Positions 1,982 through 35,365 of a stretch of 49,304 nt of DNA are shown here, in pieces. Each line of letters starts with the position of its first letter. Within the stretch, counting starts at the first letter, position 1. The stretch spans positions 1-49,304 of the forward strand of contig MGJB01000018.1 in assembly GCA_001794055.1 (NCBI GenBank), read 5' to 3'. The notes under the pieces are model-generated. The model was not told where the DNA came from. It was given only the letters and a program-made list of their open reading frames with translations, and ran no database searches. Origin of the DNA: Candidatus Yanofskybacteria bacterium RIFCSPHIGHO2_01_FULL_41_26 (GTDB lineage: Bacteria; Patescibacteriota; Minisyncoccia; 2-02-FULL-40-12; GWA2-44-9). The position numbers and the translations under genes were made by a program.

Positions 1982-2789
1982 TGGTTGAATGATTTTCAGA
2001 ACTTTTTAAAAATCCCCACTTAAACAAGTATTTAAACCCGTCTTTGATGTGCTGTTGAGACTGACGGTTCACAAAAGCATCAATTAGCCATGAATTTTTT
2101 TTTGAAATACGTCTGTGATAATGATATATCTTGGCCAACGGGCAGTAAACTACCTTATAACCATTTTCCCAGAAACGCTTAGCCCAGTCAACATCGCTGA
2201 AATACAAAAAAAACTTTTCATCCATAAATCCAACCCTATTGATTGCTTCACGCTTTACCATGAGGGCGGAACCCATGAGCCAGTCGACCTGTTGAACATC
2301 GGATAGGTCCTTATCTTTAAGAAGGAACTTTTTTAGGACCCTTTTGTTAAATGGAAGGTATCCTACTCGGCGGTAGCCAATAGTGATTGCGTTATAAAAT
2401 CCGAAACAAGATTGTTGGGGCGTGCCATCAAAATTAAGGAGCTGGGGTCCAGCCAATCCGACATCTTGATTTTTTTTCATATAATTCAGCAGCGTTTCGA
2501 TAGAGTTTTTAAGAGGAACAATGTCTGGATTTAAAACAAGAACATAATCTCCGGCGCTTTGCTTTATTCCCTCGTTAACCCCTTTTGAGTAGCCGATGTT
2601 TTCTTTAAACGACACTAATTTTATCGAAGGAAATTCTTCTAAAACTATATTCTGGGTTTCAATTTCAGATGAAATATCCATTACTAAAATTTCATATTTC
2701 AATTCGGAACTCAAAGTACGCTCAAGTGATTTTAAGCACAATCTCAATAAAGCCGGATTTTTATAATTTACTATAATAATGGAAAGCAT
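1968..2789 (-). CDS. glycosyltransferase family 2
   Basis: N-terminus MLSIIIVNYKN..., DxD-type region VLVLNPDIV, and typical GT2 length. Overlaps the ctpA start by 14 nt (operon). Confidence 0.8.
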   Translation of the reverse strand: MLSIIIVNYKNPALLRLCLKSLERTLSSELKYEILVMDISSEIETQNIVLEEFPSIKLVSFKENIGYSKGVNEGIKQSAGDYVLVLNPDIVPLKNSIETLLNYMKKNQDVGLAGPQLLNFDGTPQQSCFGFYNAITIGYRRVGYLPFNKRVLKKFLLKDKDLSDVQQVDWLMGSALMVKREAINRVGFMDEKFFLYFSDVDWAKRFWENGYKVVYCPLAKIYHYHRRISKKNSWLIDAFVNRQSQQHIKDGFKYLFKWGFLKSSENHSTNECA

Positions 2790-2792
2790 GAG

Positions 2793-3809
2793 TTAGTTCA
2801 GGTTGGCCTGAAAGAGTTGTTTTATTTGCGTAAAATTGTCGCCTTGAGGCAGAAGAATGTAGGATCCAGTGGTGCGGGATTCGTAAAGAAGATTATCGGT
2901 GGTTATGGTGTATTTTTTAATTTTTTCGGCAGAACTGATCTCTTTAGACAAGCTAAGCAACTCTGTGGCGTTCCAGATGTTTAAATCGGTTTTTATATTC
3001 GAGCGGATGCTATTAAGGATAGACAAAGTTTTAATGGGATCGGACCAGAAATTAAGTTTCGTAAGCTTGTCTTTCAAGGCGAAGACAACTTCCTGCTGGC
3101 GTCTGGACCTGTCAAAATCACTGGACGAGAATCTTGAACGGGCGTAGTAAAGAGCGTTTTTACCGTCCAAATGATTTGGTCCGGCTGGCAAGGAGAATTT
3201 ATATCCCCACTGCTGTGATTCTTCAAAGGGTTGTGCAAGAATAATATCTATTCCATCAACTTGGTCTATTATTTTTTCAAAAGAAGAAAAATCCAGAATC
3301 ACCGCTTTGTCTATATAGACTCCGGTTATTTTAGAAACCAACTCTTTGGTAAAGTTAATCCCGTTGTCTTTTTTGTAATGGCCAAATTCATAGGCGGTGT
3401 TTATTTTGTTTTTTTTATTTTTATCTATTTTTACGTAAAGGTCGCGAGGGATTGATATCATGGAGACTTTTTTGGTTGTTTTATCGTAACTTAGGACCAT
3501 TATTGAATCGGTGAGCAGGGGTCCGCCATCGGAAGCATCAGGATCGTCCTCTCCTCTTAAACCCATCACTAATACATCAAACCGATCCGGTTCTTGAACG
3601 GGCATTATGTAATCAGGGTCGATCGGTTCTGAAATAAAGTTAAAAACACTGGCCATCTTTTGCCAAAAATGAACTGGTTCCTCCCAAAAATATCCGCCGA
3701 TAATTAAAACTAAGACCAAAATAATAACGCTGAAGCGTTTTTTATTAAATCTCGGTCTCTCATTAAAGTCGGCCTGGATGAAATTATGTTGATTGTTCAG
3801 GTAAACCAT
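2793..3809 (-). CDS. LytR-CpsA-Psr (LCP) family cell-envelope polymer transferase
   Basis: N-terminal TM segment, then LTDSIMVLSYDKTTKKVSMISIPRDLYV...KINTAYEFG, the LCP signature region. Confidence 0.8.
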   Translation of the reverse strand: MVYLNNQHNFIQADFNERPRFNKKRFSVIILVLVLIIGGYFWEEPVHFWQKMASVFNFISEPIDPDYIMPVQEPDRFDVLVMGLRGEDDPDASDGGPLLTDSIMVLSYDKTTKKVSMISIPRDLYVKIDKNKKNKINTAYEFGHYKKDNGINFTKELVSKITGVYIDKAVILDFSSFEKIIDQVDGIDIILAQPFEESQQWGYKFSLPAGPNHLDGKNALYYARSRFSSSDFDRSRRQQEVVFALKDKLTKLNFWSDPIKTLSILNSIRSNIKTDLNIWNATELLSLSKEISSAEKIKKYTITTDNLLYESRTTGSYILLPQGDNFTQIKQLFQANLN

Positions 3810-3822
3810 TCCCTTAAGATGT

Positions 3823-5007
3823 TTATTGTATAATCATTTTTGATAATTGTAAAGCGAAAAATACCACCATAACAATTACTAGTATTTGGAGTATTCGCCA
3901 GCTAATTTCTGAAGCAGGAATCTGTCTTTCTTCATGAATGTTTGTAAGCATTAAAGAACGCATCTCATTAACATCCATGCGGGCGCGTTTCATTATGGTG
4001 TGTCTGCGCCTGATCATTCGCGGTAAAAGAAGCAGAAACCTCCCCCACTCCAGAAGCACTTTCTGTTCAAAAAGTCCCGCATAACCCTGGACATTTATCT
4101 CTCTTATTATTATTGCCGGGAGGTCCAGCAGAATGTTACGCAGATAATCGTTTTTAATTACAGTAAAGCGTGTGTTGGACCAATCCAGACGTCGTTTATG
4201 AATCGGGATCTGCCGTCTTAATTTTCGGCGGTGAACATAATCAGAAAGCAAATCGGTAGTTATGTTGCCTTTGGTTGTTGAACGATCGTGCCAGGCAATG
4301 ATTTCGGGTGAATAAATTTGTTTATGTCCGAAAAGGGTCATACGCCACGCAAGATCAAGGTCGTCTCCATACCAAAAATAGTCAGGATCCCAAATCCAGC
4401 CGCTAGTTTTACAATCTTCCAATGCGGTCCGCCGGAAGAATGGAACTGCACCCTCAACCCCGAAGATAACCTGTTGTCTTGAAAAGGCGGGCCCATCTTG
4501 TTTACCATGGCCGATGTTTATCACTTTTCGTTCTCGCGTCAGAGCAAAACCGCAGGTGTCAATAATTGAACGTTGTGGGTCGTAAGTTGTAGGTTGTAGG
4601 TCACGCAAATTATATTGATATATTTTGGCCTGAACAGCGCCTACTCCTGGATCGGCCTCACAAATTGCAACTGCTCTCTCGACAAAATTCTTGTCAATCA
4701 TAACGTCAACCGAAACGGATAAAATATATTTTCCGGAGGAGTATTTTAATAATTCTTCCTGTCCTGGCCACATGCCCAGATTTGTTTTGCCTTCAAGCAA
4801 AACAAATTTTGACCATAGTTTGTCATCTATAGTCGATAGCCAATCCTTAATAATTTTAATTGTGTCATCTGTTGAGCCATTATCTAAGATGTTTAATTCA
4901 ACCAAATTGTGTGGATATGTTTGCGCTAAAATCGCATCCAAACAATGGCGGATATATTTTTCGCCGTTTATAACAACTATGTTAATTGTGACTAACGCGT
5001 TATTCAT
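3823..5007 (-). CDS. glycosyltransferase family 2 with C-terminal membrane segment
   Basis: INIVVINGEKYIRHCLDAILAQTYP...LDNGSTDDT GT2 N-terminus, DDLDLAWR motif, and a C-terminal hydrophobic helix. Confidence 0.75.
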   Translation of the reverse strand: MNNALVTINIVVINGEKYIRHCLDAILAQTYPHNLVELNILDNGSTDDTIKIIKDWLSTIDDKLWSKFVLLEGKTNLGMWPGQEELLKYSSGKYILSVSVDVMIDKNFVERAVAICEADPGVGAVQAKIYQYNLRDLQPTTYDPQRSIIDTCGFALTRERKVINIGHGKQDGPAFSRQQVIFGVEGAVPFFRRTALEDCKTSGWIWDPDYFWYGDDLDLAWRMTLFGHKQIYSPEIIAWHDRSTTKGNITTDLLSDYVHRRKLRRQIPIHKRRLDWSNTRFTVIKNDYLRNILLDLPAIIIREINVQGYAGLFEQKVLLEWGRFLLLLPRMIRRRHTIMKRARMDVNEMRSLMLTNIHEERQIPASEISWRILQILVIVMVVFFALQLSKMIIQ

Positions 5008-6505
5008 GTTTGGTTAGAACTAAGGCGATGGTCGTCACAAAAATCAGAAACGTCCTTTCGTCAAAAAGAGCTACATCAGTTAAACCATAAACCAAAACCC
5101 AGGGAATAAAAATTAAAGCCGCACCGTTATAAACAATTATTTCACGATCTTTTGAGGAAACAAAGTTGTTATATATCTTCTGCACTAAAAGCCACAAAAA
5201 CCATAAAGCAAAAATCAGGGCCGGGGTTCCCATCTCGGCGGCGATTTGGAGGTAAATATTATGAGCCGAGGAGCCGGCTTTGGCTAAACGTATATCTTGC
5301 CCAAGCACAACCGGATAGTTGCCGATACCGACGCCTAATAACGGACGTTCTTTTATTGACAATAAGGTTTTCTTCCATATTTCTATACGCTGAGCGTTAG
5401 ATGTTTCTCCGAAATCGATTATTGACCTAACGCGCTGTTTTAAAAAATCATCGCTTTTTCCCACTAAAAACTGAGGAGAAGAAAATATGGGAAAAGCAAC
5501 AGCAAACATTACAAAAAATATTACTAAAAACCACCCCAATTTCTTAAAACTGACAAAATTATCATATGAAAATTTTGTCAGCTCCCTTTTTTTCACATAA
5601 ATCATCAATCCAAAATACAATAATACAACTCCAATACTTGCCGCCCAAATCCCTCTTGTCCCGCTTAGGATGATAATTAAAAATAAAAACGAAATAGATA
5701 TTATCTTTAACCATTTTTTTTGTATTATTGCCAAGACAGCAGGAATGCCAAGAAGTATAAATTGCGGAAATGAGTGCGAATCAGGAAAAAGAGAAAACAC
5801 TCTCAACGACAACTGCTCGCCGTAATACGCGAACCAAGTGTTGCCGAGTTGTACGGCGATATTGCACCATTGTTCACCAAACTGTCGGCATTGTATTTCC
5901 TCTCCCCACATCCTCATAAATTGATAGATATCAATGAAGTACGTGGAGATAACTTGAATATAACCGACTGTGGCAACGATAACGACAGGAATAATTGAGT
6001 TTTTAATTAATCTTTTAGCAAATTTTTTGTCAGCTGATTTGTAATAAATTACTATTCCCAGAACTGCGAAATTTAAAAAATAAATTATTCGTTTAATAGC
6101 TGCAATTTTGTCTGTCGCAGGAATTAGGGACAAAACTGCGAGGAGCAATAAAATGATGAGTAAAAAAGACAATTGTCTATAACTGAAATTTTTAATCCAA
6201 TTCTTAATACTTAATACGTAATACTTAATATTATTTTTGAATAACCATTTCAAAAATATAATTGTCGCCAAAACGCGCCAAGTATTGAAATTATCAAAAT
6301 TGGTCGTAATCGGCAGTGCCAAAAACAGAGGAATTGATCTCACAAAAAATACCAGAGAATCATCAAGTGGTGCGGCCAAAAAATATATAACCAAAGCCGC
6401 TCCCAAATAAAGTGCTATCTCTCGCGGCAAAATGCCGGTTATTATCAAACCGAAGAGACTAACTTCTATGGCAAAAAACAGGTTTAAAAATTTATTTCTT
6501 GACAT
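5000..6505 (-). CDS. O-antigen ligase / Wzy-like polytopic membrane protein
   Basis: About 10 or more hydrophobic segments and a Wzy_C-like motif GSSAHNIYLQIAAEMG. Overlaps the upstream GT2 by 8 nt. Confidence 0.7.
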   Translation of the reverse strand: MSRNKFLNLFFAIEVSLFGLIITGILPREIALYLGAALVIYFLAAPLDDSLVFFVRSIPLFLALPITTNFDNFNTWRVLATIIFLKWLFKNNIKYYVLSIKNWIKNFSYRQLSFLLIILLLLAVLSLIPATDKIAAIKRIIYFLNFAVLGIVIYYKSADKKFAKRLIKNSIIPVVIVATVGYIQVISTYFIDIYQFMRMWGEEIQCRQFGEQWCNIAVQLGNTWFAYYGEQLSLRVFSLFPDSHSFPQFILLGIPAVLAIIQKKWLKIISISFLFLIIILSGTRGIWAASIGVVLLYFGLMIYVKKRELTKFSYDNFVSFKKLGWFLVIFFVMFAVAFPIFSSPQFLVGKSDDFLKQRVRSIIDFGETSNAQRIEIWKKTLLSIKERPLLGVGIGNYPVVLGQDIRLAKAGSSAHNIYLQIAAEMGTPALIFALWFLWLLVQKIYNNFVSSKDREIIVYNGAALIFIPWVLVYGLTDVALFDERTFLIFVTTIALVLTKHE

Positions 6506-6759
6506 TATAATTTTAGAATATTAGGATTACTATTAAGGGATTAAATGGTAGGGGTGCTCGATGACTTTGTCTCTTTTTATGGCAATGAGTTTTACCGGAG
6601 CAGCATTTTTTTCTTCATTTAACCCAAGCAAAAACAGCAGAATAAGATTACGTATCTGGTTGGGTTTTGCTTTTTGTGCTCTTTTGTTCCATGCCTTAGG
6701 GCTATAGGATCGTCTATCTAGATGATCCTTTTTAATACTTGCTTATTATTTCTAAAAAC

Positions 6760-7890
6760 CTACGGTTCATTAATTATTTTGATCCAGCGGTTGGCAAAGT
6801 CATTCCAGTTATACTTCTTCACGAATTCCGGGCCGGAATTTTTTATTCTCTGGACTTTTTCCGAATCGGTCAGTGCCAGCTTTATTGCTTCTGCGACGTT
6901 GTCCACTTCTCCGCTTTTAGCATAGAACGCATATTCGCCGAAAAGCTCATGTCCCAACTCATTATCCATTATAACCGGCGGAACTCCAAACGACAGCGCT
7001 TCCATCGGCGGCAATCCGAATGCTTCTCTGTCGGAAACATAAACCAACGCTTTTGCTTCGGCGTATAGGCCGACCAGTTCTTCGTCTTTGATATAATCCT
7101 TATGGACGATTGCTTGCCTACCCAATCTGTCGTTCACTTCTGAAACCAGAAAACCGATGGTCGGAGTTTCATATTTATTAGGTCCAATTGCGATAAGTTT
7201 TAAATTAGAAAATTCTGGAGCCAATTTTTCAAACGCCAAGACGGTTTCTTTAAGGTGCCGGCGCGGAAATGCCTGCCCGACATAAAGAATATATTTATCT
7301 TGAAAATTATTATTTTCCTTGAGGTTTAACCTCAAGGAAAAATTTATACCGAGATAATTAACAAAAATTCGGTTTGGGTTGATGTTGAAAAGCTCGGCCA
7401 CGTTTTTTTTTGATGTTTCCGAGATTGCCAAAATTTTTGTTGCAAATTTTGCTGTCCAATTAACAAAAACCCAATAAGCAAGGCGATATCTAAACGGGAG
7501 CTTGCCTTGGTAGGTTTCATAATAAGCATCTTCGGTCAGCATTACCACTGATTTGCCAAAAGCAATTATGGGAAGCATATAATTTGGCCAAAACATTACG
7601 TCGAGCCGATCAAACCAAAGCTTCATCGGCAGAAGAGCAAAATAATAAATCGGGAAAAGACGGTTCTTAAAAAAAGGAACCGGAACCATCTTTTTTTCAA
7701 AAATTGGAGCGTTTAAAAATGAAAAACCAGGAATAGTATCCTTGAAATATAAAACAAAACGATATTCTTTTTCCAATTCCGTGCGGCGGGAAATTTCCTC
7801 AAGAAGTTTCATAATCATTCTTCCTACGCCCCACATTGGGTTTTTCCCCTCAATTGACTCACACTCAATTCCGATTCTAATTATTGACAT
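6760..7890 (-). CDS. glycosyltransferase family 4 (GT-B fold)
   Basis: EAFGLPPMEALSFGVPPV (E-x7-E motif). Start trimmed to the ATG at 7890 (MSIIRIGIECES...), because the longer track ORF adds an implausible leader. Confidence 0.8.
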   Translation of the reverse strand: MSIIRIGIECESIEGKNPMWGVGRMIMKLLEEISRRTELEKEYRFVLYFKDTIPGFSFLNAPIFEKKMVPVPFFKNRLFPIYYFALLPMKLWFDRLDVMFWPNYMLPIIAFGKSVVMLTEDAYYETYQGKLPFRYRLAYWVFVNWTAKFATKILAISETSKKNVAELFNINPNRIFVNYLGINFSLRLNLKENNNFQDKYILYVGQAFPRRHLKETVLAFEKLAPEFSNLKLIAIGPNKYETPTIGFLVSEVNDRLGRQAIVHKDYIKDEELVGLYAEAKALVYVSDREAFGLPPMEALSFGVPPVIMDNELGHELFGEYAFYAKSGEVDNVAEAIKLALTDSEKVQRIKNSGPEFVKKYNWNDFANRWIKIINEP

Positions 7891-7943
7891 AAGAATTATT
7901 TTGTTATAATATATAAAAACTGATCTTTGAACAAGGTTTAAAA

Positions 7944-8267
7944 ATGGCAACCGATCGGACTCGCAGAATTCGCGGAACTCGAGGTAATGTGGGTCGTCTG
8001 ATTCGCCGAGATTGGCTTCGGGCCACTGACTTTGATTGCGAAGCTCTTAATTTCGGAGATTTAGATGTTAATGAAAAATTTATTCCCCTACCTTCTCCCG
8101 GTGACAATAGTGGACACGGCGGTCTTTTGGGTGGTGCTTGGTTGTTTATGAAAATTGAACCAGAATCTTTTCCTGTAGCGGAAATTCCTCTTAATGCTGT
8201 CTGCTTGACGGATGGTTGTAAGGTTCATTTTTCTGATGCCGACCTTATCTATTTGGTAAATTGTTAA
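7944..8267 (+). CDS. hypothetical protein with Arg-rich N-terminus (107 aa)
   Basis: ATG ORF on the opposite strand to the surrounding cluster. It is visibly higher in GC than its neighbours and has its own terminator directly downstream. Confidence 0.45.
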   Translation: MATDRTRRIRGTRGNVGRLIRRDWLRATDFDCEALNFGDLDVNEKFIPLPSPGDNSGHGGLLGGAWLFMKIEPESFPVAEIPLNAVCLTDGCKVHFSDADLIYLVNC

Positions 8268-8274
8268 TTATTGA

Positions 8275-8299
8275 CTGGCTCATGAGCCAGTTTTATTTT
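8275..8299 (+). terminator. rho-independent terminator
   Basis: ctggct-catg-agccag hairpin followed by ttttatttt. Confidence 0.55.
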
Positions 8300-8350
8300 C
8301 CCCATTTTACGGATATACCAGTTGCCTATCCCTTTTAATATCGTAACTGA

Positions 8351-8935
8351 TTACTCTTTGTTTTTTAATTCTAGATATAATTTTTTTAAACGATTCAAGT
8401 AATTTAGAGCTCTATCCCGTTCAAGACCAGTTAGTTTTGTCATAATTAGCAAGCGAATTTGATCGTGGTTATATGCTTTTTGAGATTCATCATTCCAGGG
8501 GTAAAAATCATCTAAATAAACCATATTACCGTCGTTATCTTCAACGAAATTCTGCGTACTTTCATCAAACTCGATCCCACAATCTTTTAGTTGTTTCCGT
8601 AACGTATAAAGGTCTTCGATTTTTTCTTCTCTAATCGATATTGTTTCTCTTGACTTAAATTTAATTTTTTCTTTCGTTATTGTCCTTGGTTGAGTGGTAG
8701 TCATAAAAACATCCGGTACATTTTTCGGAAATAACATATGCAAAATTTTGGTAAAGTAGAACTTGGCTTTGTTAAATTCAGGTGACCTTTCAAACTTAAA
8801 TTCTGCTTCAATTTTGTAAATTCCCACCACTTTTTCATCTTTATCTGGGTGTGGATAGACGACTTTTTCACCTCCATCACCTATTTCTTTTTGAGCTTCT
8901 ATCCTGTTTTTTATGAATTCTTTAAATTCTTCCAT
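8351..8935 (-). CDS. hypothetical protein, possibly a minimal protein-kinase-like fold
   Basis: ATG at 8935 (MEEFKEF...). By eye: Gly-rich loop IGDGGEKVVY, Lys in VVGIYKIE, DESTQN (DxxxxN) and VYLDDF (DFG-like). No database check. Confidence 0.5.
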   Translation of the reverse strand: MEEFKEFIKNRIEAQKEIGDGGEKVVYPHPDKDEKVVGIYKIEAEFKFERSPEFNKAKFYFTKILHMLFPKNVPDVFMTTTQPRTITKEKIKFKSRETISIREEKIEDLYTLRKQLKDCGIEFDESTQNFVEDNDGNMVYLDDFYPWNDESQKAYNHDQIRLLIMTKLTGLERDRALNYLNRLKKLYLELKNKE

Positions 8936-25469: not shown

Positions 25470-27053
25470 TTAGTTATTAAGTAAGAATCGGAAAATAGCC
25501 CCAAGATATTTATTGTTCAGTAATGATTGGGGCGCTGGTTCCGATGGTGGAGGCGGAGGTGGTAGCATTTCTCTTTGAGGTTCTTGAAACTGCTGCTGCA
25601 TTTGAGGTACAGGTTCAAGCGGTTGGGATTGTTCTATCGGCATGCGGCCTTCAAACTCTGATGGAGGCACAAATCCTGGCGGAGGAGTCATCTCATCGCT
25701 TGGCATAGGCATTTCTGGTCGTTGAAACTCTGGGGGTATTTGTTTGTCTTGTGGTTCTCTTCGTTCCCATTCGCGCGGCTCCTCTCTTTCTCCTGGTGGA
25801 GGAAATTGATTTTGGATTGGCCTTTGCTCATTAGATCTTTGCTTATCTTCTGATCGTTGAAAATTTTGGCAGGCTTCTGGATTTTGAGAGCAAAAACTCT
25901 GGCATTCTTCCGGTGTAGAACATCCTCCGGGGCTGCGGCGGAATTCGCTACCTTCTGGCGGCGGTATGCCCGGTCTTCCTTCATGTTCTTGTCTTTCTTG
26001 TTCTTGCCCTGGCTCGCCTTCCATCGACGGGGGCATTTTTTGGAAACAACCTTGAATTGCATCTCCCAATTGAGGTCCGGGAGTGAGTTCTCCCGACTGG
26101 ATTTTGTTCATTGTTTTTTCACCAAGAGCTGATCTCAAGCAGTCCCTTGCTTCGCTTGGCATCCTATCTATGTCTTCGCGCATTCGATTCATCCCTTCTT
26201 TCATTCTGCTCAATTCTTCTTCGGTGATCATTCCATTCTCTTCGGCGAATTTAAAACATATATCTTGGTTAGATGGATTATTACAAAATGATTCACACTC
26301 CTCTTTGCCTTTGCACCCGCCCGGACCTTTGCCTTTTGTTTTTCTCGCCATTTCTGCTTCTTTTGCGTCCATAAATCCGGCTTCAATCGCAAAATTCATA
26401 CAGACTTCCATATTGTCTGGTTGTTGGCAATATTCATCGCAGGCCTGTCTGCCTCGACAAGGTAGCGGTTTAACTCCTCTTTTGAGGGCCTGCAACATTT
26501 TTTGGGCATTTTCTTTCTCCTGATCACCCATCAAACCGGCTTCAGACGCAAAGGTAACACATTCTTCCATATGGCTCGGATTCCCGCAGTAGCTATCGCA
26601 CGATTTCTTGTTGCCGCAAGCCGGCGGTTTAACACCTCGTTTAATTGCATTGCGTACTTTTTGAGCTTCCCGTAGCTCATCAGGCGGTATCAAGCTGTTT
26701 TGCTCGGCAAACGAAACACACTCGTCAATGCGAGAAATGTCATTGCAATATGTTTCACAAGAATCCTTACCAGTACATCCGCCGGGACCCTTGTTGCCTG
26801 AGGCCGCGAACTTTTTGGCCATTTCAAGCTCTTCCTTCGGCATTAAATTGTTCTGTTCAGCAAAATTTAAACAGGCCGAAATATTCTCAGGTCTATCACA
26901 ATAACTCCGGCATTCGGATTCACTTTTACAATTTCCAAGCTGGGAAACCGGATATTGAATATCCGAAATACCGGCAAACACTTGAACAGCAAAAAAAGAC
27001 AATATGCCGACTCCAGCCAAGTAAAGTATAAAAATAATTTTATTTTGTTTCAT
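25470..27053 (-). CDS. secreted Cys-rich tandem-repeat protein with Pro/Glu/Gln-rich tail
   Basis: Signal/anchor MKQNKIIFILYLAGVGILSFFAVQVFAG, followed by six copies of a ~45-aa module C-x5,6-C-x3-C-x8,9-C-x2-FA. Confidence 0.75.
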   Translation of the reverse strand: MKQNKIIFILYLAGVGILSFFAVQVFAGISDIQYPVSQLGNCKSESECRSYCDRPENISACLNFAEQNNLMPKEELEMAKKFAASGNKGPGGCTGKDSCETYCNDISRIDECVSFAEQNSLIPPDELREAQKVRNAIKRGVKPPACGNKKSCDSYCGNPSHMEECVTFASEAGLMGDQEKENAQKMLQALKRGVKPLPCRGRQACDEYCQQPDNMEVCMNFAIEAGFMDAKEAEMARKTKGKGPGGCKGKEECESFCNNPSNQDICFKFAEENGMITEEELSRMKEGMNRMREDIDRMPSEARDCLRSALGEKTMNKIQSGELTPGPQLGDAIQGCFQKMPPSMEGEPGQEQERQEHEGRPGIPPPEGSEFRRSPGGCSTPEECQSFCSQNPEACQNFQRSEDKQRSNEQRPIQNQFPPPGEREEPREWERREPQDKQIPPEFQRPEMPMPSDEMTPPPGFVPPSEFEGRMPIEQSQPLEPVPQMQQQFQEPQREMLPPPPPPSEPAPQSLLNNKYLGAIFRFLLNN

Positions 27054-27413: not shown

Positions 27414-27488
27414 GGGGGCTATGGTGAAATGGTTATCACAGCGCTCTGTGGAAGCGCGGTCGTGGGTTCAATTCCCACTAGCCCCCCA
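27414..27488 (+). tRNA. tRNA-His (GUG)
   Basis: Hand-folded cloverleaf: G-1 plus acceptor GGGGCUA/UAGCCCC, anticodon arm GCGCU-CUGUGGA-AGCGC, and T arm GUGGG-UUCAAUU-CCCAC. Confidence 0.85.
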
Positions 27489-29346: not shown

Positions 29347-29351
29347 TTTTG

Positions 29352-29422
29352 TCGGGATGCCGAGATTCGAACTCGGACTAAAACGTCCCAAACGTCTCGT
29401 GCTACCGTTACACTACATCCCG
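29352..29422 (-). tRNA. tRNA-Pro (UGG)
   Basis: Minus strand: CGGGAUG acceptor, anticodon arm AGACG-UUUGGGA-CGUUU, T arm CCGAG-UUCGAAU-CUCGG. CCA is not encoded. Confidence 0.85.
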
Positions 29423-29490: not shown

Positions 29491-29519
29491 GAAAATATAA
29501 AAGCCGAGTTTCCTCGGCC
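29491..29519 (-). terminator. rho-independent terminator of the Ubl cassette
   Basis: On the minus strand: gccgag-gaaa-ctcggc followed by ttttatatttt; 36 nt after the Ubl stop codon. Confidence 0.65.
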
Positions 29520-29554
29520 TGTATGAGATTATGCCTTCTGACTAAAGTAAGGAA

Positions 29555-29824
29555 CTAACCTTTTTGGCCTGCTGGCTTTTTGAATTCCAGCTCTTCGTTG
29601 CCATCAAGGAATACGCCCTCATCTGCAAGTTGCTTGCCATTGACCAAGATCACAGTGTGGTCATCACCGATATTCATGACTTCGCGAAGGTTGTTGCGAA
29701 CCTCACGCACGGTATATCCAAGCATACCTTCAAGTTCTTGGGTATTCGCACCACAGACAACACGTAGTCTGTCGGTTTTGGTAGTAGTCGCAGTCGGCGC
29801 AACAGAAGTTGCAAGCTTAAGCAT
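29555..29824 (-). CDS. ubiquitin-like beta-grasp protein (ThiS/MoaD/Prok_Ub-like), C-terminal Gly
   Basis: 89 aa. VILVNGKQLADEGVFLDGNEELEFKKPAGQKG-stop resembles the ThiS/MoaD C-terminal half. The last residue is Gly. Last gene of an operon with E1-like and JAB genes. Confidence 0.65.
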   Translation of the reverse strand: MLKLATSVAPTATTTKTDRLRVVCGANTQELEGMLGYTVREVRNNLREVMNIGDDHTVILVNGKQLADEGVFLDGNEELEFKKPAGQKG

Positions 29825-29885
29825 TTTAGGTCTCTTTTCCTTGTTTACGGATCTTTCGATAGTATATTACACTACAATACCAGTG

Positions 29886-30581
29886 TCAAGGGCTAGTCAA
29901 TTTTTGCCTAACTGGGCGTACATTACCAGTTTGAAGATCAAAATATACTTCGTAATAAGGACCAAAACCATTAAGCCACAGAACAAAGGCATTCAGCATT
30001 AAAGTTGCTACCGTTAAGTTAACAACTAGAAGTTGAGGCTCCCCAGCTTTAGCAAGTTCTTCACATGATAATTCTGCTGGATTACGATCAATTGGACTCT
30101 CGATTTCTGGATGCTGAAATGTGAGTGAGGGTGTAATGTCTTTGCCCCCACGCCTCTCATATACTTGAACATTGCCATCGTACAGCTCGTTGCCCCCAGA
30201 AATAAGCAGAGCATTATCCAAAGAGGCAACGTGGCCTGATACTAGATTTCTAGTCGCATGGTTATCACAGCCAAGAAAGATTACGTCACCTTCTCGAATT
30301 AATGCCAAAATATTATTTGAATTTACAAAGACTGGTTTAGATTCAATATTTAACTCTGTAAACATCAGCTCAAGCCATTCTTTTGTAGTCTCTGCTTTAT
30401 TTGCTAAAGCAGAAAATTTTTGACGCTCACGATTGCGCTCTTTATAGGCCTTACCATCTATCAATATGACTCGCTTGGGAATTTTTTCATTATCTGAGTC
30501 AGAGTAGGCTAAAATTCTACAGAGAGGTTCAACAAGATTACTACCTATACCTCCTAAACCCACTATTGCAACTCTCTTCAT
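29886..30581 (-). CDS. minimal ThiF/MoeB/E1-like adenylyltransferase (231 aa)
   Basis: IVGLGGIGS (Rossmann P-loop), ILIDGKAYKERNRERQ (E1 D...N..RQ motif), FLGCDNHATR (DN...R motif). Confidence 0.8.
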   Translation of the reverse strand: MKRVAIVGLGGIGSNLVEPLCRILAYSDSDNEKIPKRVILIDGKAYKERNRERQKFSALANKAETTKEWLELMFTELNIESKPVFVNSNNILALIREGDVIFLGCDNHATRNLVSGHVASLDNALLISGGNELYDGNVQVYERRGGKDITPSLTFQHPEIESPIDRNPAELSCEELAKAGEPQLLVVNLTVATLMLNAFVLWLNGFGPYYEVYFDLQTGNVRPVRQKLTSP

Positions 30582-31322
30582 TTACTCTTCTTCCCTTTGT
30601 TTCATTAACCTAACGCTATTTCGCCATTCTTCAGGCGGTTCATACTTTTCTGGCAAAAGTTTTTCTTCACCAGCTAGTACATATTCTTCTTGTTTATACT
30701 TAGGGTAAGAGTAGTAAACAGCTATGGGCTGTTTTACAACGCCTTCTATCAATTTACCTGGATCAAGAGTAAACCTAGTTCCATTTATGCATGCCTGTAA
30801 GCTTAGGTTGAAGGAATTACGATAGAAATAAAATCCACCAAATGTTCCGTGTATTCCGTCAAAGTTTATCTCATCGTGATGATCAATTGATGAATGAAAT
30901 GCCAACATCCTGCCATGTGAATGCAGAGTTCCTATGAGACGATGGTTTTCTTTTTGAGGTATATCATATTCGATTCTTCCATAAGCCACTGCCTGAGGCG
31001 GGACAGTAATATTGTAACCTCCTACATCAGATCCACTCCACCACAAAAGTGCTAGGGCTTCAGTGTTTTGCCTGTGAGTAATCCAAGCAAAGAATTGTGC
31101 AACTGTTTTTAATATTTCTTTAGGTATTGGGGGCAACAGGAATTCAAACTTAGGCTCTTGTTCTTCTAGTATGCTAATTCGTTCCACGGGAACGATAGCT
31201 TTCCAAAACGGCGTCTCTTTGTGAAGAAACACTCCATTAGCACTAATTTCATACAAGGTTGGCGTATCTGGTTTAGGCGTATTCTTATCGTGAATCCATA
31301 CTGGGTACATAGGCATAATCAT
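30582..31322 (-). CDS. JAB/MPN (JAMM) metalloprotease
   Basis: Glu88 (NTEALALLWW), then GTLHSHGRMLAFHSSIDHHDE, which is H-x-H-x7-S-x2-D (H134 codon at 30921-30923). The stop abuts the E1 start and the start overlaps the upstream stop (ATGA). Confidence 0.8.
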   Translation of the reverse strand: MIMPMYPVWIHDKNTPKPDTPTLYEISANGVFLHKETPFWKAIVPVERISILEEQEPKFEFLLPPIPKEILKTVAQFFAWITHRQNTEALALLWWSGSDVGGYNITVPPQAVAYGRIEYDIPQKENHRLIGTLHSHGRMLAFHSSIDHHDEINFDGIHGTFGGFYFYRNSFNLSLQACINGTRFTLDPGKLIEGVVKQPIAVYYSYPKYKQEEYVLAGEEKLLPEKYEPPEEWRNSVRLMKQREEE

Positions 31323-32665
31323 TCTCCTTTCTGCTGTAATTCTTCTACGAAGTGCTCACCAAAATCTTTACCCATCTTTTTGGAACGCCTTCTGAGAGAA
31401 GTAGTCAGTTTAACTACAAGATTGGTTATTTGCACTGAAAGAAAATCTTTGGCACCTTGAACCATGTTTTGAGGAACACTGAAATGTGCTCCCAAAAAAA
31501 GAATTTTTTCCTCAAGTTGTTCACGAAATTGTGATGCAAGTAGTTTTAGCTGACCATCTCTTTTTTGAGCCAAACTTTCTTGAGATTTTTCATATTTCTG
31601 GGCTATATAATCTAGGACCGCTTTTACCATTTGTCCCAGGTTATAATCACATTGTATCCAAGGTAATTTACAGACAGCCAGTAAAGAGTCCTCGCGCATT
31701 GAGAATTTTTCCCATTCTTCGATATTACTTACTTCTGGGATTGTACTTGCTGCTTGGCGCCACAATTCGGTTGACCACGGTTGGCCATCGTAAAAACCGC
31801 TTCCCCAGAACCAATCCAATAATGTTAGATTCCAGTTAGGGTCAGATAATTTTATTGGAGGTCGGCCAGAACCTAAACAAGTTCCGAAGGGTAACTGATA
31901 GTTTACTTCTGGCAGATTGCAAAAGTACAAAGCCTCGTTTTGACTTTGAAGTTTTTTTGATCCATAAAAAACACCTAAACCACAGTGACCATGGTCATTG
32001 TCACCGCTAGGAACGTCTTCATATAATTCGCCGTTCACGAAATAAACGATAAAGCGTACCCAAGGAAATACAAGCCTTCTCTTCACCCCACACATATCTA
32101 TGGTTCTTCGTTGAGGAGGAACATCCAAACAGAAAGCCGTATAAGTGTATTTAGGGGTTATAAGTTGCCAACGGAAACGAGTATTAACTGGGAATGGCCC
32201 ATCCGTTTGAAAGACACGCTCTTGTCTCCTATCTTGTTCATAGGCCCTACCTATTTCTTCAAACTTGTCATTAGCAAAGGATGAGAACATCTTTTCGCCC
32301 TGTGTCCCAAGTGCATCAAGTAATTCCTTTCGGAATTTTTTCTCACCCGCATTTATGCATGTATCAACCAGTGGGCTTATTAAGTCTGCGAGCTTATCTA
32401 TTTCCGGTTTGGCAATAGTTGTATTCCAACTATCCAGCATTTCAATAGTTGCTCTTTGGACTGATTCTGCAACAGATTCAGCAAGACTAGACTGGTCTCG
32501 AATAAATTCTAGTTTTTTAGGTTTGTACAGTCCTAAAAATTTAGATCCATTTTGAAATAATAGTCTCCAGACAGAGCCATCAGTATCTAGGAAAACTTTA
32601 CCTATAGAATCTGAAATACTTCTAGTATTAAGCGATTGACCGCTAAGCTCTTCTTGGTTAGTCAT
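31319..32665 (-). CDS. uncharacterised 448-aa protein, candidate E2/UBC-like component
   Basis: First gene of the cassette. The central beta-rich stretch is followed by NLPEVNYQLPFGTCLGSG (Cys263 codon at 31877-31879), reminiscent of the E2 HPN...G.[IV]CL flap. Helical N- and C-terminal regions. Assigned by eye only. Confidence 0.4.
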   Translation of the reverse strand: MTNQEELSGQSLNTRSISDSIGKVFLDTDGSVWRLLFQNGSKFLGLYKPKKLEFIRDQSSLAESVAESVQRATIEMLDSWNTTIAKPEIDKLADLISPLVDTCINAGEKKFRKELLDALGTQGEKMFSSFANDKFEEIGRAYEQDRRQERVFQTDGPFPVNTRFRWQLITPKYTYTAFCLDVPPQRRTIDMCGVKRRLVFPWVRFIVYFVNGELYEDVPSGDNDHGHCGLGVFYGSKKLQSQNEALYFCNLPEVNYQLPFGTCLGSGRPPIKLSDPNWNLTLLDWFWGSGFYDGQPWSTELWRQAASTIPEVSNIEEWEKFSMREDSLLAVCKLPWIQCDYNLGQMVKAVLDYIAQKYEKSQESLAQKRDGQLKLLASQFREQLEEKILFLGAHFSVPQNMVQGAKDFLSVQITNLVVKLTTSLRRRSKKMGKDFGEHFVEELQQKGE

Positions 32666-32710: not shown

Positions 32711-32747
32711 ATTCTACACCAAAGTTATACAAGAGTCAATATTGACT
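32711..32747 (-). promoter_or_regulatory. sigma70-like promoter of the cassette, overlapped by a 14-bp perfect palindrome
   Basis: Minus strand: TTGACT (32734-32739), 17-nt spacer, TAGAAT (32711-32716). The palindrome AGTCAATATTGACT (32734-32747) covers the -35. RBS GGAAGAG lies 7 nt before the ATG. Confidence 0.5.
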
Positions 32748-32761
32748 TTCGGATGGGCCGC

Positions 32762-32836
32762 TTTCCTATCTGGTCCCCTCGGAGGGAATCGAACCCCCAT
32801 CAAGACCTTAGAAGAGTCCTGCTTTATCCATTAAGC
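32762..32836 (-). tRNA. tRNA-Arg (UCU), CCA encoded
   Basis: Minus strand: acceptor CCCCUCG/CGAGGGG, D arm GCUU-AAUGGAUA-AAGC, anticodon loop CUUCUAA, T arm GGGGG-UUCGAUU-CCCUC, then ACCA. Confidence 0.85.
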
Positions 32837-32969
32837 TACGAGGGGATATTCATCTGCCACTTGTCAATTTTACTCTAAAACAAACTTTTTGAAAAGGAAG
32901 TTTACACCTGATTCGCATTGTGATACATATTGACACAAAAGCTCGTTTAAAATTCAAAAGGACAGGCCC

Positions 32970-35273
32970 ATGAATTTGTTCTGGAGGAAGTCAAGAGAAT
33001 TATTTGACTTGATCCCAAAACAGCTTAAAACAGATTACTGGATTTTTACCATTAAACGCCGGCCATGGTTGAAGAAATTATTTGCGGTCCTTTTTTTGCT
33101 CTTTTTGTTCATGGGAGCAACGGTAGTTTCGGGATATTGGTATGTGTATTACTTCAAAGGCTGTTTTTTTAATTTAGGTTGTTTGAATGATGATCAAGGC
33201 CAACCGCTTGATATAGAAAAAATCGCCCAGTTTAAATTTAAAAAGGCCTCCTACGTTTATGCTAATAACAAAAAGGAAATCGGAAAATATTTTGACGAAA
33301 TAAGAGACCGCGCTCGGTTAAATGAAGTTCCCCAACTTCTTCAAGATGCTTTTATAGCCGCCGAAGATAAAAGATTTTATCAGCACTCGGGGATTGATGT
33401 GTATGCCATTGCTTCTGCCCTTATCGGCAACACTACGCATGAATTCGGTTTTAAATTTTGGACGAGATCAGGTGGGGCAAGCACCATAACCCAGCAATTA
33501 TCAAGACTCGCTTTTGCCGATGAAGTACCTGATTTCAAAACCAGAGCCCGTACCTACAATCGGAAATTAAAGGAAGCAAGACTAGCAATTCGGATAGAAA
33601 AACGTTATTCAAAAAAGGAAATTCTCGAAACTTATCTGAACTTAATCTGGCTTGGCCACGGGGCCAACGGCGTTGTTCCCGGAGCTAAGCGCTATTGGGG
33701 CAAAAATATCCGCAAAGAACGGCTTTCCATCAAAGAGGCCGCCATGCTTGCGAGTATTAATAAAAATCCCGCTCTTTATGACCCGATTTTTCACAAACCG
33801 CCCGAACCAAAAATAGAGGAAGGGACTTCTCCCGAAGCAATCGCAAAGTTGCAGGAAGAATATGAAGCAGCAAAAATAAAAGAAGTCATTCGATTGGCAA
33901 CCGCTAAAGACCGATATAATTTTGTCCTTAAGCAAATGAAATACCGCGGATCCATATCCCAAAAGGAATACGAGGAAAATTTATTTCAAAAAGATAAAAA
34001 TCCCGATACGGAAGCATTGGCCAAGCTAGAGTCTTGGAAAAACCCCGAATATGGTTATGGCAATCGAATGGTGAAAGAAATGCTTTTGACATCAGGACAC
34101 AATGAAGATGAGATATCCCAAAACGGCGGATTGAGGATTTATACAACTTTTGTCCCATCAATCCAAAAAATTACCTCGGAAGAATTTGAGAAACATCTGG
34201 CGCTGCTGAACGAAGGCAAAGAACAAAAAGACCGGCTAAATGGCGCCTTTATTGTAATAGAAGTAAAAACCGGAAATATTCTGGCTTTAAGCGGTGGAAA
34301 TAATTTTGATGAAAGCCAATATAACCGTGCAATGGCATCACGTTCACCGGGTTCGGGTTTCAAACCCTTTACCTATGCTGCGGCAATGGAATACTCCCAT
34401 AAGGATTTTTTTGACAAGATATGCAACTGCTCTTTCAGCATGAGGGGCAGCGGTCCTGGTAAAATCTGGACGCCAAAGAATTTTCAAGAAGAAAACCCTG
34501 TGCCGATCGGCTACATTCCTTTCTCAACCGGACTCATTCGGTCGGTGAATCTTGCCACCCTCAACGAAGCCCGTTCATTAGGCATGGGACCAATTCTAAA
34601 ATTGGCCAACTCAATGGGTGTCTGGGGAAACCCGGGCATAGTCAGAGATTCCGACGGAAAAATTTGGTTTAAAAAGCCCCACTATGAGATAAGGGGCGGA
34701 CTTGTTCCCCTTTTGCCGACAGCTATCGGGGCTTCGGATGTGAATCTTATCGAACTGGCAAATGCTTATACCGTTTTCTTCCGGGGCGGAAACTATATCA
34801 AACCGACACTCATCCGAGAAATTAAAAACACTTACGGCGATGATCTTCTGTATAAAGCTGATACTCCGAATGAAAAACGGGTCCTTTCTAAGAAAACCGC
34901 CAATAAAATGCTTGCCTTAATGCGAGCTGTCACAAAAATTGGTACTGCCAAAATATCAATGCGCGGCATTGAACAGCAAGTTGCATGCAAAACAGGCACT
35001 TCCGATGGTCCTAGGGATGTTTCGATGTGGTGTGGAACTCCGGAATTTGTTATTGCCGTCCGGTTCGGGATGGATGACTATAGAATAATTGAATTGCCCG
35101 CATACATGAAAAAAATGACCGGCCGATCTGACATGCAGGTATCAGGCGGTTGGGCTGCAGGACGATTTATCAGAAATGTTATTGTCCGATACTATAAAGA
35201 CAGACAGAAAGTGAAATTTTCCCCTTCAGTAGAATCTGAATTAAAGCGACTCTTGGATTCAAATCCCCAATAG
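32970..35273 (+). CDS. mrcA: class A penicillin-binding protein (bifunctional transglycosylase/transpeptidase)
   Basis: GT51 motifs EDKRFYQHSGID, GASTITQQL, RKLKEA. Transpeptidase motifs SGFK (SxxK), SVN, KTGTS. N-terminal TM segment. Confidence 0.9.
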   Translation: MNLFWRKSRELFDLIPKQLKTDYWIFTIKRRPWLKKLFAVLFLLFLFMGATVVSGYWYVYYFKGCFFNLGCLNDDQGQPLDIEKIAQFKFKKASYVYANNKKEIGKYFDEIRDRARLNEVPQLLQDAFIAAEDKRFYQHSGIDVYAIASALIGNTTHEFGFKFWTRSGGASTITQQLSRLAFADEVPDFKTRARTYNRKLKEARLAIRIEKRYSKKEILETYLNLIWLGHGANGVVPGAKRYWGKNIRKERLSIKEAAMLASINKNPALYDPIFHKPPEPKIEEGTSPEAIAKLQEEYEAAKIKEVIRLATAKDRYNFVLKQMKYRGSISQKEYEENLFQKDKNPDTEALAKLESWKNPEYGYGNRMVKEMLLTSGHNEDEISQNGGLRIYTTFVPSIQKITSEEFEKHLALLNEGKEQKDRLNGAFIVIEVKTGNILALSGGNNFDESQYNRAMASRSPGSGFKPFTYAAAMEYSHKDFFDKICNCSFSMRGSGPGKIWTPKNFQEENPVPIGYIPFSTGLIRSVNLATLNEARSLGMGPILKLANSMGVWGNPGIVRDSDGKIWFKKPHYEIRGGLVPLLPTAIGASDVNLIELANAYTVFFRGGNYIKPTLIREIKNTYGDDLLYKADTPNEKRVLSKKTANKMLALMRAVTKIGTAKISMRGIEQQVACKTGTSDGPRDVSMWCGTPEFVIAVRFGMDDYRIIELPAYMKKMTGRSDMQVSGGWAAGRFIRNVIVRYYKDRQKVKFSPSVESELKRLLDSNPQ

Positions 35274-35291: not shown

Positions 35292-35365
35292 TGGAGCGGG
35301 TAACGAGATTCGAACTCGTGTCTACTCCTTGGAAGGGAGTCGTACTACCACTGTACTATACCCGC
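35292..35365 (-). tRNA. tRNA-Gly (UCC), CCA encoded
   Basis: Minus strand: GCGGGUA acceptor, anticodon arm ACUCC-CUUCCAA-GGAGU, T arm CACGAG-UUCGAAU-CUCG, ending ...UACCCGCUCCA. Confidence 0.85.

Follow-up and report, generated by a model that had tools for sequence, protein, structure and literature searches.

Conjugation of ubiquitin-like proteins (Ubls) in bacteria, by Cap2 and Cap3 of the cyclic oligonucleotide-based antiphage signalling system (CBASS) and by the Bil and Bub systems, has been shown biochemically only recently. A four-gene operon encoding a Ubl, a JAB peptidase, an activating enzyme (E1) and a protein resembling conjugating enzymes (E2-like) was predicted computationally in 2006 as operon type 6d (PMC1779556), and CBASS, Bil and Bub have since been characterised (PMC10097602, PMC10557695, PMC11601596). 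Here we describe a cassette of four such genes in a 49,304-nucleotide (nt) stretch of DNA, hereafter the window, from contig MGJB01000018.1 of Candidatus Yanofskybacteria bacterium RIFCSPHIGHO2_01_FULL_41_26. Its first gene, which we call the lead gene, encodes a 448-residue protein with a conserved cysteine, Cys263. Judging from sequence comparison, the cassette appears nearest to the PRTRC/E2-family-D class, which is known computationally and experimentally uncharacterised; to our knowledge, the "E2 family D"/PRTRC branch has never been tested experimentally. A literature search found no paper on this cassette, on a Ubl system of Saccharibacteria or on a characterised function of PRTRC.

We propose that the lead protein is a cysteine-bearing, E2-like carrier in a self-contained Ubl-conjugation cassette, a reading to which we assign a probability of about 0.6. 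The protein belongs to a rare branch that current family models do not recognise and whose predicted fold matches no solved structure.

The lead protein and its core domain family

An interpretation of the DNA made without database searches (the sequence-only reading) had singled out the open reading frame (ORF) at 31319–32665, two peptides within its product, and codon 31877–31879 as that of a catalytic cysteine. Translation confirms all of these, the peptides being residues 173–215 and 245–270 and the cysteine of GTCLG being residue 263. Full-length homologs are 39–59% identical to the lead protein (E-values 1e-107 to 1e-177), so the gene is real and conserved. Word-indexed searches recovered 8–10 close relatives of the lead protein, and seven with a profile of the core; to reach the wider family, a profile had to be compared exhaustively with 1.84 billion representative proteins, and this returned 155 proteins at a library-wide E≤1e-3. 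A profile of residues 150–345 matches nearly all of them from end to end and defines a discrete domain of ~180 residues. This core occurs alone in proteins of ~210 residues, between helical extensions in proteins of ~430–500 residues, the class that includes the lead protein, and in the C-terminal half of proteins of 700–1040 residues. As the sequence-only reading had supposed, the E2-like region is embedded in a larger protein, where it forms a separable domain between family-specific helical extensions.

The family signature comprises the motifs LPxGTRF, ExPPQxRT, LAFP[YW], VFYR, NLPN-x9-C and FWxSxF, together with W318 and W336. The proposed catalytic cysteine has held up on alignment: Cys263 is kept in 137 of 148 aligned core domains and is invariant in the eight closest homologs, in which the entire block PFGTCLGxxRPP...LSxPxW is unchanged. 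The preceding N-L-P, read earlier as the counterpart of the E2 flap, turned out to be a majority motif rather than an invariant one (N250 in 89, L251 in 127 and P252 in 100 of 150 sequences, with the following Asn in 112). In the window protein, several well-conserved positions differ from the consensus of the family: E181 (Asp), R235 (Gly), P238 (Lys), N253 (Glu) and P326 (Asp). Position 253 is either Glu or Gln in its clade. No histidine is conserved in the core domain across the family alignment, and the idea that the core is a Cys-His hydrolase or a transglutaminase was rejected for this reason. The wide conservation of Cys263 and the lack of a co-conserved histidine are what a thioester carrier, rather than a Cys-His hydrolase, would be expected to show.

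Linkage to E1, JAB and Ubl genes

The strongest evidence on function is how tightly the core is linked to genes for an E1, a JAB peptidase and a Ubl. In the close relatives (loci L001/L002, L003 and L010, the last from a Candidatus Saccharibacteria metagenome-assembled genome), the same four genes stand in the same order. Remote loci, whose cores are only ~20–25% identical, were scanned with profiles of the window's partner proteins. The core gene adjoins E1 and Ubl genes in every locus with enough flanking sequence, and a JAB gene is present in all but one. The order is core, JAB, E1, Ubl in L004, L011, L014 and L015; these genes are also present in L017, where the Ubl gene lies upstream. The locus lacking JAB in the available contig, L016 (19–4784), runs E1, Ubl, core, with the core inside a 1041-residue protein; its Ubl has a long acidic N-terminal region (239 residues) and ends in SGDKS, with no terminal glycine. 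All the other scanned cassettes keep the Ubl terminus [AS]GxKG. Locus L007 carries two cassettes in tandem (2009–8667), next to mreB and the gene for DNA polymerase III delta'. Its first cassette consists of two adjacent core-only paralogs (214 and 212 residues) followed by JAB, E1 and a 103-residue Ubl, and its second of a full-length lead protein, JAB, E1 and an 89-residue Ubl. In L004, an 84-kb contig that is possibly of viral origin, a sigma-70-like gene stands ahead of the cassette. A tblastn search of phage and plasmid collections with the remote homologs gave no match, and a scan of viral contigs with one family alignment profile found none.

In the window, the lead gene heads a translationally coupled minus-strand operon in which it is followed by the JAB, E1 and Ubl genes; the stop of the lead gene and the start of the JAB gene share 4 nt (31319–31322). 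The JAB protein matches Pfam Prok-JAB (E 3.4e-3) and TIGR03735 PRTRC_A (E 1e-7, 31.7 bits versus a cutoff of 101.8 bits), and the E1 matches PF00899 (E 3.8e-16) and TIGR03736 PRTRC_ThiF (E 3.5e-9, 36.3 bits versus a cutoff of 144.75 bits). From these scores, both proteins appear to be relatives of the PRTRC partners and not equivalogs. Neither had a match among PDB sequences by phmmer. Alignments of 10–11 relatives of each partner show that the JAMM motif E...HSHx7Sx2D is invariant in 10 of 10 JAB proteins and Cys173 in 11 of 11 E1 proteins, in which GxGGxG and DNHxxR are also kept. The Ubl relatives share a ThiS-like pattern, ...NG...L..G(D/E)xxEF...[AS]GxKG, with the [AS]GxKG terminus in 10 of 11 cassettes, and residues 31–77 of the window Ubl are weakly similar to residues 15–61 of ubiquitin. 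With intact E1 and JAB motifs and a Gly-ended Ubl, the E1/peptidase/Ubl context of the lead protein is solid.

Fold of the core and relationship to E2 families

An AlphaFold2 (AF2) model of the core alone, built from 35 diverse sequences, has a predicted local distance difference test score (pLDDT) of 91 and a predicted template modelling score (pTM) of 0.87. The beta-meander guessed from the sequence is present in the model, with five strands (162–169, 174–182, 185–191, 194–200 and 202–210) instead of four. The order of the secondary structure elements (meander, flap, Cys loop, helices) parallels that of the ubiquitin-conjugating (UBC) domain. The only significant structural relatives were found by Foldseek in BFVD, and are four uncharacterised proteins of uncultured Caudovirales (A0A6J5MFC0, A0A7R7G2H5, A0A6J5P0Y8 and A0A6J5NU73; E 9e-7 to 4e-4, template modelling (TM) score up to 0.64).

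Sequence profiles connect the family to described E2-like groups through its remote homologs: of 114, 32 match PF14460 (Prok-E2_D, "Prokaryotic E2 family D") with a best E of 2.3e-8, and TIGR03737, PRTRC system protein B, is matched by 5 (best E 3.2e-7). Seven matches inspected singly are collinear with the core, at 15–21 bits. A classical E2 profile was built from four human E2s and validated against the E2 entries of the PDB at E ~1e-73. Its sole local match to the core profile in hhalign pairs ALYFCNLPE..GTC263LG with IYHPNI..GSIC85LD, which sets LPN on HPN and Cys263 on the catalytic Cys85 of UBC.

Several results weigh against an E2 assignment. Searches of Pfam, NCBIfam and PADLOC at E≤0.1 return no model for the lead protein itself, not even Prok-E2_D, and the Prok-E2_D matches inspected individually, from three batches of 10 remote homologs, all fall under the 25-bit Pfam cutoff. 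The hhalign match to the E2 profile is weak (probability 8.6%, P=0.004). The core sheet has seven strands, not four as in UBC. A Foldseek search of the PDB with the core model gave no significant match and no E2 (best E 0.27, TM at most 0.21); the only E2-containing entry listed, Cap2 (7to3_A), stood at rank 29 with a probability of 0.06 and a TM of 0.21. A profile search of PDB sequences with the core family likewise found no relative and no E2. Within the motif, the window protein has Glu253 where the Asn of HPN would be expected, and conservation across the family peaks in the meander (E181, P184, R187 and P201), not near the cysteine.

The UBC fold anticipated by the sequence-only reading was therefore not found by structure search, in spite of a model with a pLDDT of 91, and on the evidence of this model a UBC fold of the core is not confirmed. 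Because the lead protein fails the direct tests for UBC, Prok-E2_D and PRTRC_B, we assign it to none of these families. The E2 reading is supported in part: by the conserved Cys263, the separable domain, the E1/Ubl/JAB context and the links to Prok-E2_D and PRTRC_B, but not by a UBC fold or an invariant N-L-P.

The same structural results bear on a different explanation, in which the core is another Ubl-using or Ubl-binding component with a fold of its own, either a Cys-dependent ligase or transferase that is not a UBC protein, or an adaptor of the Ubl or the E1 without catalytic activity. The label Prok-E2_D would then reflect no more than a weak similarity in sequence. A core model of high confidence that has no neighbour in the PDB would fit this explanation, as would structural relatives that are limited to four uncharacterised phage proteins and a conservation that is strongest (LPxGTRF, ExPPQxRT, LAFPY) in the beta-meander, a feature that is not conserved in E2s. 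Nevertheless, no second catalytic residue (His, or Asp beside Cys) is co-conserved as it would be in a hydrolase or transglutaminase, the sole local match to classical E2s falls exactly at HPN-Cys, and the operon already has a peptidase and an adenylating enzyme, leaving the carrier role as the missing one. We consider this explanation unlikely.

E1/Ubl/JAMM systems that operate independently of an E2 exist (archaeal SAMP/UbaA and Thermus TtuB/TtuC), and the sequence-only reading had offered, as its own alternative, that the system has no E2 and the whole protein is a substrate or effector. The E1 would then conjugate the Ubl directly, and the lead protein would be a substrate, sensor or effector switched by attachment of the Ubl and its removal by JAB. 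Such a role is consistent with the failure of the lead protein to match any E2 model directly, with a fold that matches no E2, and with large helical extensions, which suggest a scaffold or effector more than they do a minimal E2. However, a substrate would not need a near-invariant lone cysteine in a conserved loop, and core-only versions of ~210 residues, which carry no effector module, fill the same slot in the operon. The links of remote homologs to Prok-E2_D and PRTRC_B also argue for a carrier. The arrangement without an E2 fits the data less well than an E2-like carrier, and we regard it as rather unlikely.

Helical extensions and C-terminal tail

Neither extension of the lead protein has a match in Pfam, NCBIfam or PADLOC. 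A full-length AF2 model (8 sequences) is weak (pLDDT 62), and its Foldseek matches are noise. It places helices at residues 61–144 (~84 residues), 343–360, 365–393 and 399–446, in addition to a small N-terminal beta unit. The N-terminal extension is weakly conserved in relatives of ~430–500 residues, and those of ~480–500 residues show weak alignment over most of the protein length. The C-terminal motif QFREQLEEKIxFLGAHFSVP (379–398) is strongly conserved. The flanks had been described from the sequence as helical and without family match, which is correct; the C-terminal extension, however, covers ~100 residues and not ~150, as the core spans residues ~150–345. The helical extensions may have a scaffold or target-selection role.

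The C-termini of the lead protein (31322–31336, ...QQKGE) and of the Ubl (29558–29572, ...AGQKG) are alike. Lead proteins of the window clade end in ...KG(G) plus 1 to ~16 residues, with K446-G447 invariant in the close clade, and their tails (KGE, KGGE, KGGR, and KGG with 13–16 further residues) mirror the Ubl tails AGQKG, AGQKGL and AGRKGI. GG is found in the last 10 residues of 12 of 139 family members, compared to a background of 2.6% (p=2.7e-4), and some members end exactly in GG or KG. These features would be expected if the lead protein were both carrier and cargo: JAB would trim its ...KG(G)x tail, the E1 would adenylate it, and the protein would be conjugated or polymerised in a manner similar to the conjugation of the CD-NTase by Cap2 in CBASS. 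The tail could instead be a pseudo-substrate that autoinhibits the E1 or JAB. Most remote members and about half of 27 full-length relatives lack the tail, however; it follows a long helix and not a beta-grasp domain, and the operon already encodes a dedicated Ubl. We find a lead protein of this double nature very improbable; at similarly low probability, the tail may be a recognition element for JAB or the E1, for self-conjugation or in a pseudo-substrate role.

A combination of these structural and C-terminal features is also conceivable, although it seems quite unlikely. The core would be a Ubl carrier with a new structure, having no relation to UBC or being remodelled so far as to form a separate fold. 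In the window clade, its Ubl-mimicking ...KG(G) tail would be processed by JAB and activated by the E1, and the carrier would then be conjugated, polymerised or autoinhibited.

Features of the cassette and its surroundings

The features of the cassette are listed in Table 1. Promoter-like sites in the region are no more numerous than the shuffled expectation. The one inside the 3' end of the E1 gene, a close match to consensus, could give separate, higher expression of the Ubl.

Table 1. Positions of the cassette features in the window.
Feature	Position	Strand	Basis
Promoter-like site TTGACT-17-TAGAAT, 46 nt upstream of lead ATG	32711..32739	minus	consensus match only
Lead gene: putative E2-like protein, 448 residues, N- and C-terminal helical extensions	31319..32665	minus	ATG-to-stop ORF
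Lead N-terminal extension, residues 1–149: small beta unit (24–56) and one long helix (61–144)	32219..32665	minus	full-length model, low to medium confidence
Lead core domain, residues 150–345: five-strand meander, two further strands, NLPE/Cys263 loop, four helices	31631..32218	minus	profile limits and AF2
NLPE, residues 250–253: version of family motif NLPN, candidate counterpart of E2 HPN flap	31907..31918	minus	
Cys263 codon, proposed thioester-accepting cysteine	31877..31879	minus	translation of 31868–31888 = FGTCLGS
Lead C-terminal extension, residues 346–448: helical, motif QFREQLEEKIxFLGAHFSVP (379–398), ...QQKGE tail	31322..31630	minus	
Lead C-terminal tail QQKGE, residues 444–448: invariant K446-G447 in close clade, Ubl-terminus-like	31322..31336	minus	
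JAB/JAMM metallopeptidase, 246 residues: N-terminal alpha+beta domain; E88, H134-S-H-x7-S144-x2-D147 intact	30582..31322	minus	
Minimal ThiF-type E1, 231 residues: GLGGIGS (8–14), DNHATR (106–111), Cys173 in LSCEEL	29886..30581	minus	
Promoter-like site TTGACA-17-TATACT (11/12), inside E1 3' end just upstream of Ubl	29861..29889	minus	consensus match only
Ubiquitin-like/ThiS-like protein, 89 residues, ending ...KKPAGQKG at the stop	29555..29824	minus	
Terminator-like hairpin and T-run, 35 nt past Ubl stop	29501..29520	minus	

The four-gene cassette is bracketed exactly by tRNA-Arg(TCT) (32771–32845) and tRNA-Pro(TGG) (29351–29422), both on the minus strand. Genes for tRNA-His (27415–27487) and tRNA-Gly (35292–35365) also lie near it. 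Its neighbours are housekeeping genes, among which searches of Pfam and NCBIfam found no ParB match. Recent horizontal transfer of the cassette was considered and rejected: its GC content of 0.39–0.41 matches the surroundings, and a roughly syntenic neighbourhood (HU, a patatin-like protein and a penicillin-binding protein, PBP) is found in L003. Cell-wall enzymes adjoin the cassette in three close loci, namely a class A PBP in the window (32970–35273), a YkuD L,D-transpeptidase in L001 (11255–12361), and a polysaccharide deacetylase with a PBP in L003 (11272–14409); the cassette of L007 follows mreB. These neighbours may reflect plain synteny or may be a hint about targets. Farther along the window, a minus-strand gene (25470–27053) encodes a predicted secreted protein of 527 residues, in which a Cys-rich repeat (C..C...YC..P....C..FA...) occurs about six times in tandem and which has a long tail rich in Pro, Gln and Glu.

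Proposed conjugation cycle

The observations made here are that the order of the genes is conserved, that the motifs are intact and the cysteines conserved, and that profiles link the family to Prok-E2_D and PRTRC_B. From them we infer the chemical steps of a cycle with the lead protein as E2-like carrier, and the role of its extensions. The JAB peptidase would trim any residues past the terminal Gly of the Ubl, of which relatives have 1–2 and the window Ubl, needing no trimming, has none. The E1 would then adenylate this Gly and take the Ubl onto Cys173, and the Ubl would pass by transthioesterification to Cys263 of the lead protein, in the loop after NLP(N/E) of the 150–345 core. The N- and C-terminal helical modules could act as a built-in, E3-like scaffold or target selector, so that the Ubl is delivered to a lysine of the target. 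The JAB peptidase would finally reverse the mark. By analogy with Bil, CBASS and Bub, the biological purpose of such a cassette may be defence or regulation.

The cassette bears on whether this branch relays a thioester from E1 to E2, on what a non-canonical E2 looks like, and on the use of protein tagging in a symbiont with a minimal genome. Its carrier is missed by all current annotation models and has a confidently predicted core fold without a solved relative. A profile of the family, with its 155 members, would allow lead genes of this type to be annotated.

Comparison with known systems

The E2-independent systems (archaeal SAMP/UbaA/HvJAMM1 and Thermus TtuB) resemble the window cassette in their small ThiF-type E1, their Gly-ended, ThiS-like Ubl and their JAMM peptidase. 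Unlike it, they have no fourth, invariably linked gene for a Cys-bearing protein, a partner which is the most constant feature of the window cassette.

Classical UBC-type E2s, such as UBE2D2 and UBE2N, resemble the core, in which a beta-meander is followed by a candidate flap of the (H/N)(P/L)(N/P) type, a loop cysteine ~10 residues farther on and then helices, and are likewise partnered with an E1 and a Gly-terminated Ubl. They differ in that the core has no significant sequence or structure match to them, a seven-strand sheet instead of one with four strands, no N-terminal E1-binding helix, and NLPE in place of HPN.

Bil (BilABCD), CBASS Cap2/Cap3, Bub and operon types 6a–6e (Iyer et al. 2006) likewise bring together, within a compact operon, the genes for an E1 and an E2-like protein, for a peptidase (JAB or another type) and for a Ubl or a Ubl-like C-terminus. 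The E2s of type 6d have a conserved His C-terminal to the Cys (PMC1779556), whereas the window family has no conserved His. The lead, JAB and Ubl proteins match no PADLOC defence model, and the E1 has only weak matches to Cap2 "E1-E2" models (best E 3.4e-4). In contrast to Cap2, the E1 and the E2-like protein of the window are separate, and there is no CD-NTase. In contrast to the oxyester chemistry described for Bub, both conserved catalytic residues of the window cassette are cysteines.

The closest resemblance is to PRTRC/Prok-E2_D loci. They follow the same operon logic, in which a Cys-bearing, E2-like protein accompanies a JAB resembling PRTRC_A together with an E1 of the ThiF type and a Ubl, both small, and PRTRC_A and PRTRC_ThiF are among the best NCBIfam matches of the window JAB and E1. 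The differences are nonetheless considerable. The window protein matches neither PF14460 nor TIGR03737, its partners score far under the PRTRC cutoffs, and it escapes every current family model. Its core is flanked by helical extensions of ~150 and ~100 residues. The cassette lacks ParB-type and accessory genes, as no ParB-like or other PRTRC D/E/F protein is adjacent to it and exactly four genes lie between the tRNAs, and it is located on the chromosome of a candidate phyla radiation (CPR) bacterium, not on a plasmid or an integrative and conjugative element. These features set the cassette apart from PRTRC and E2 family D. It is a minimal version of that branch, with four genes and all catalytic motifs intact in a reduced CPR genome.

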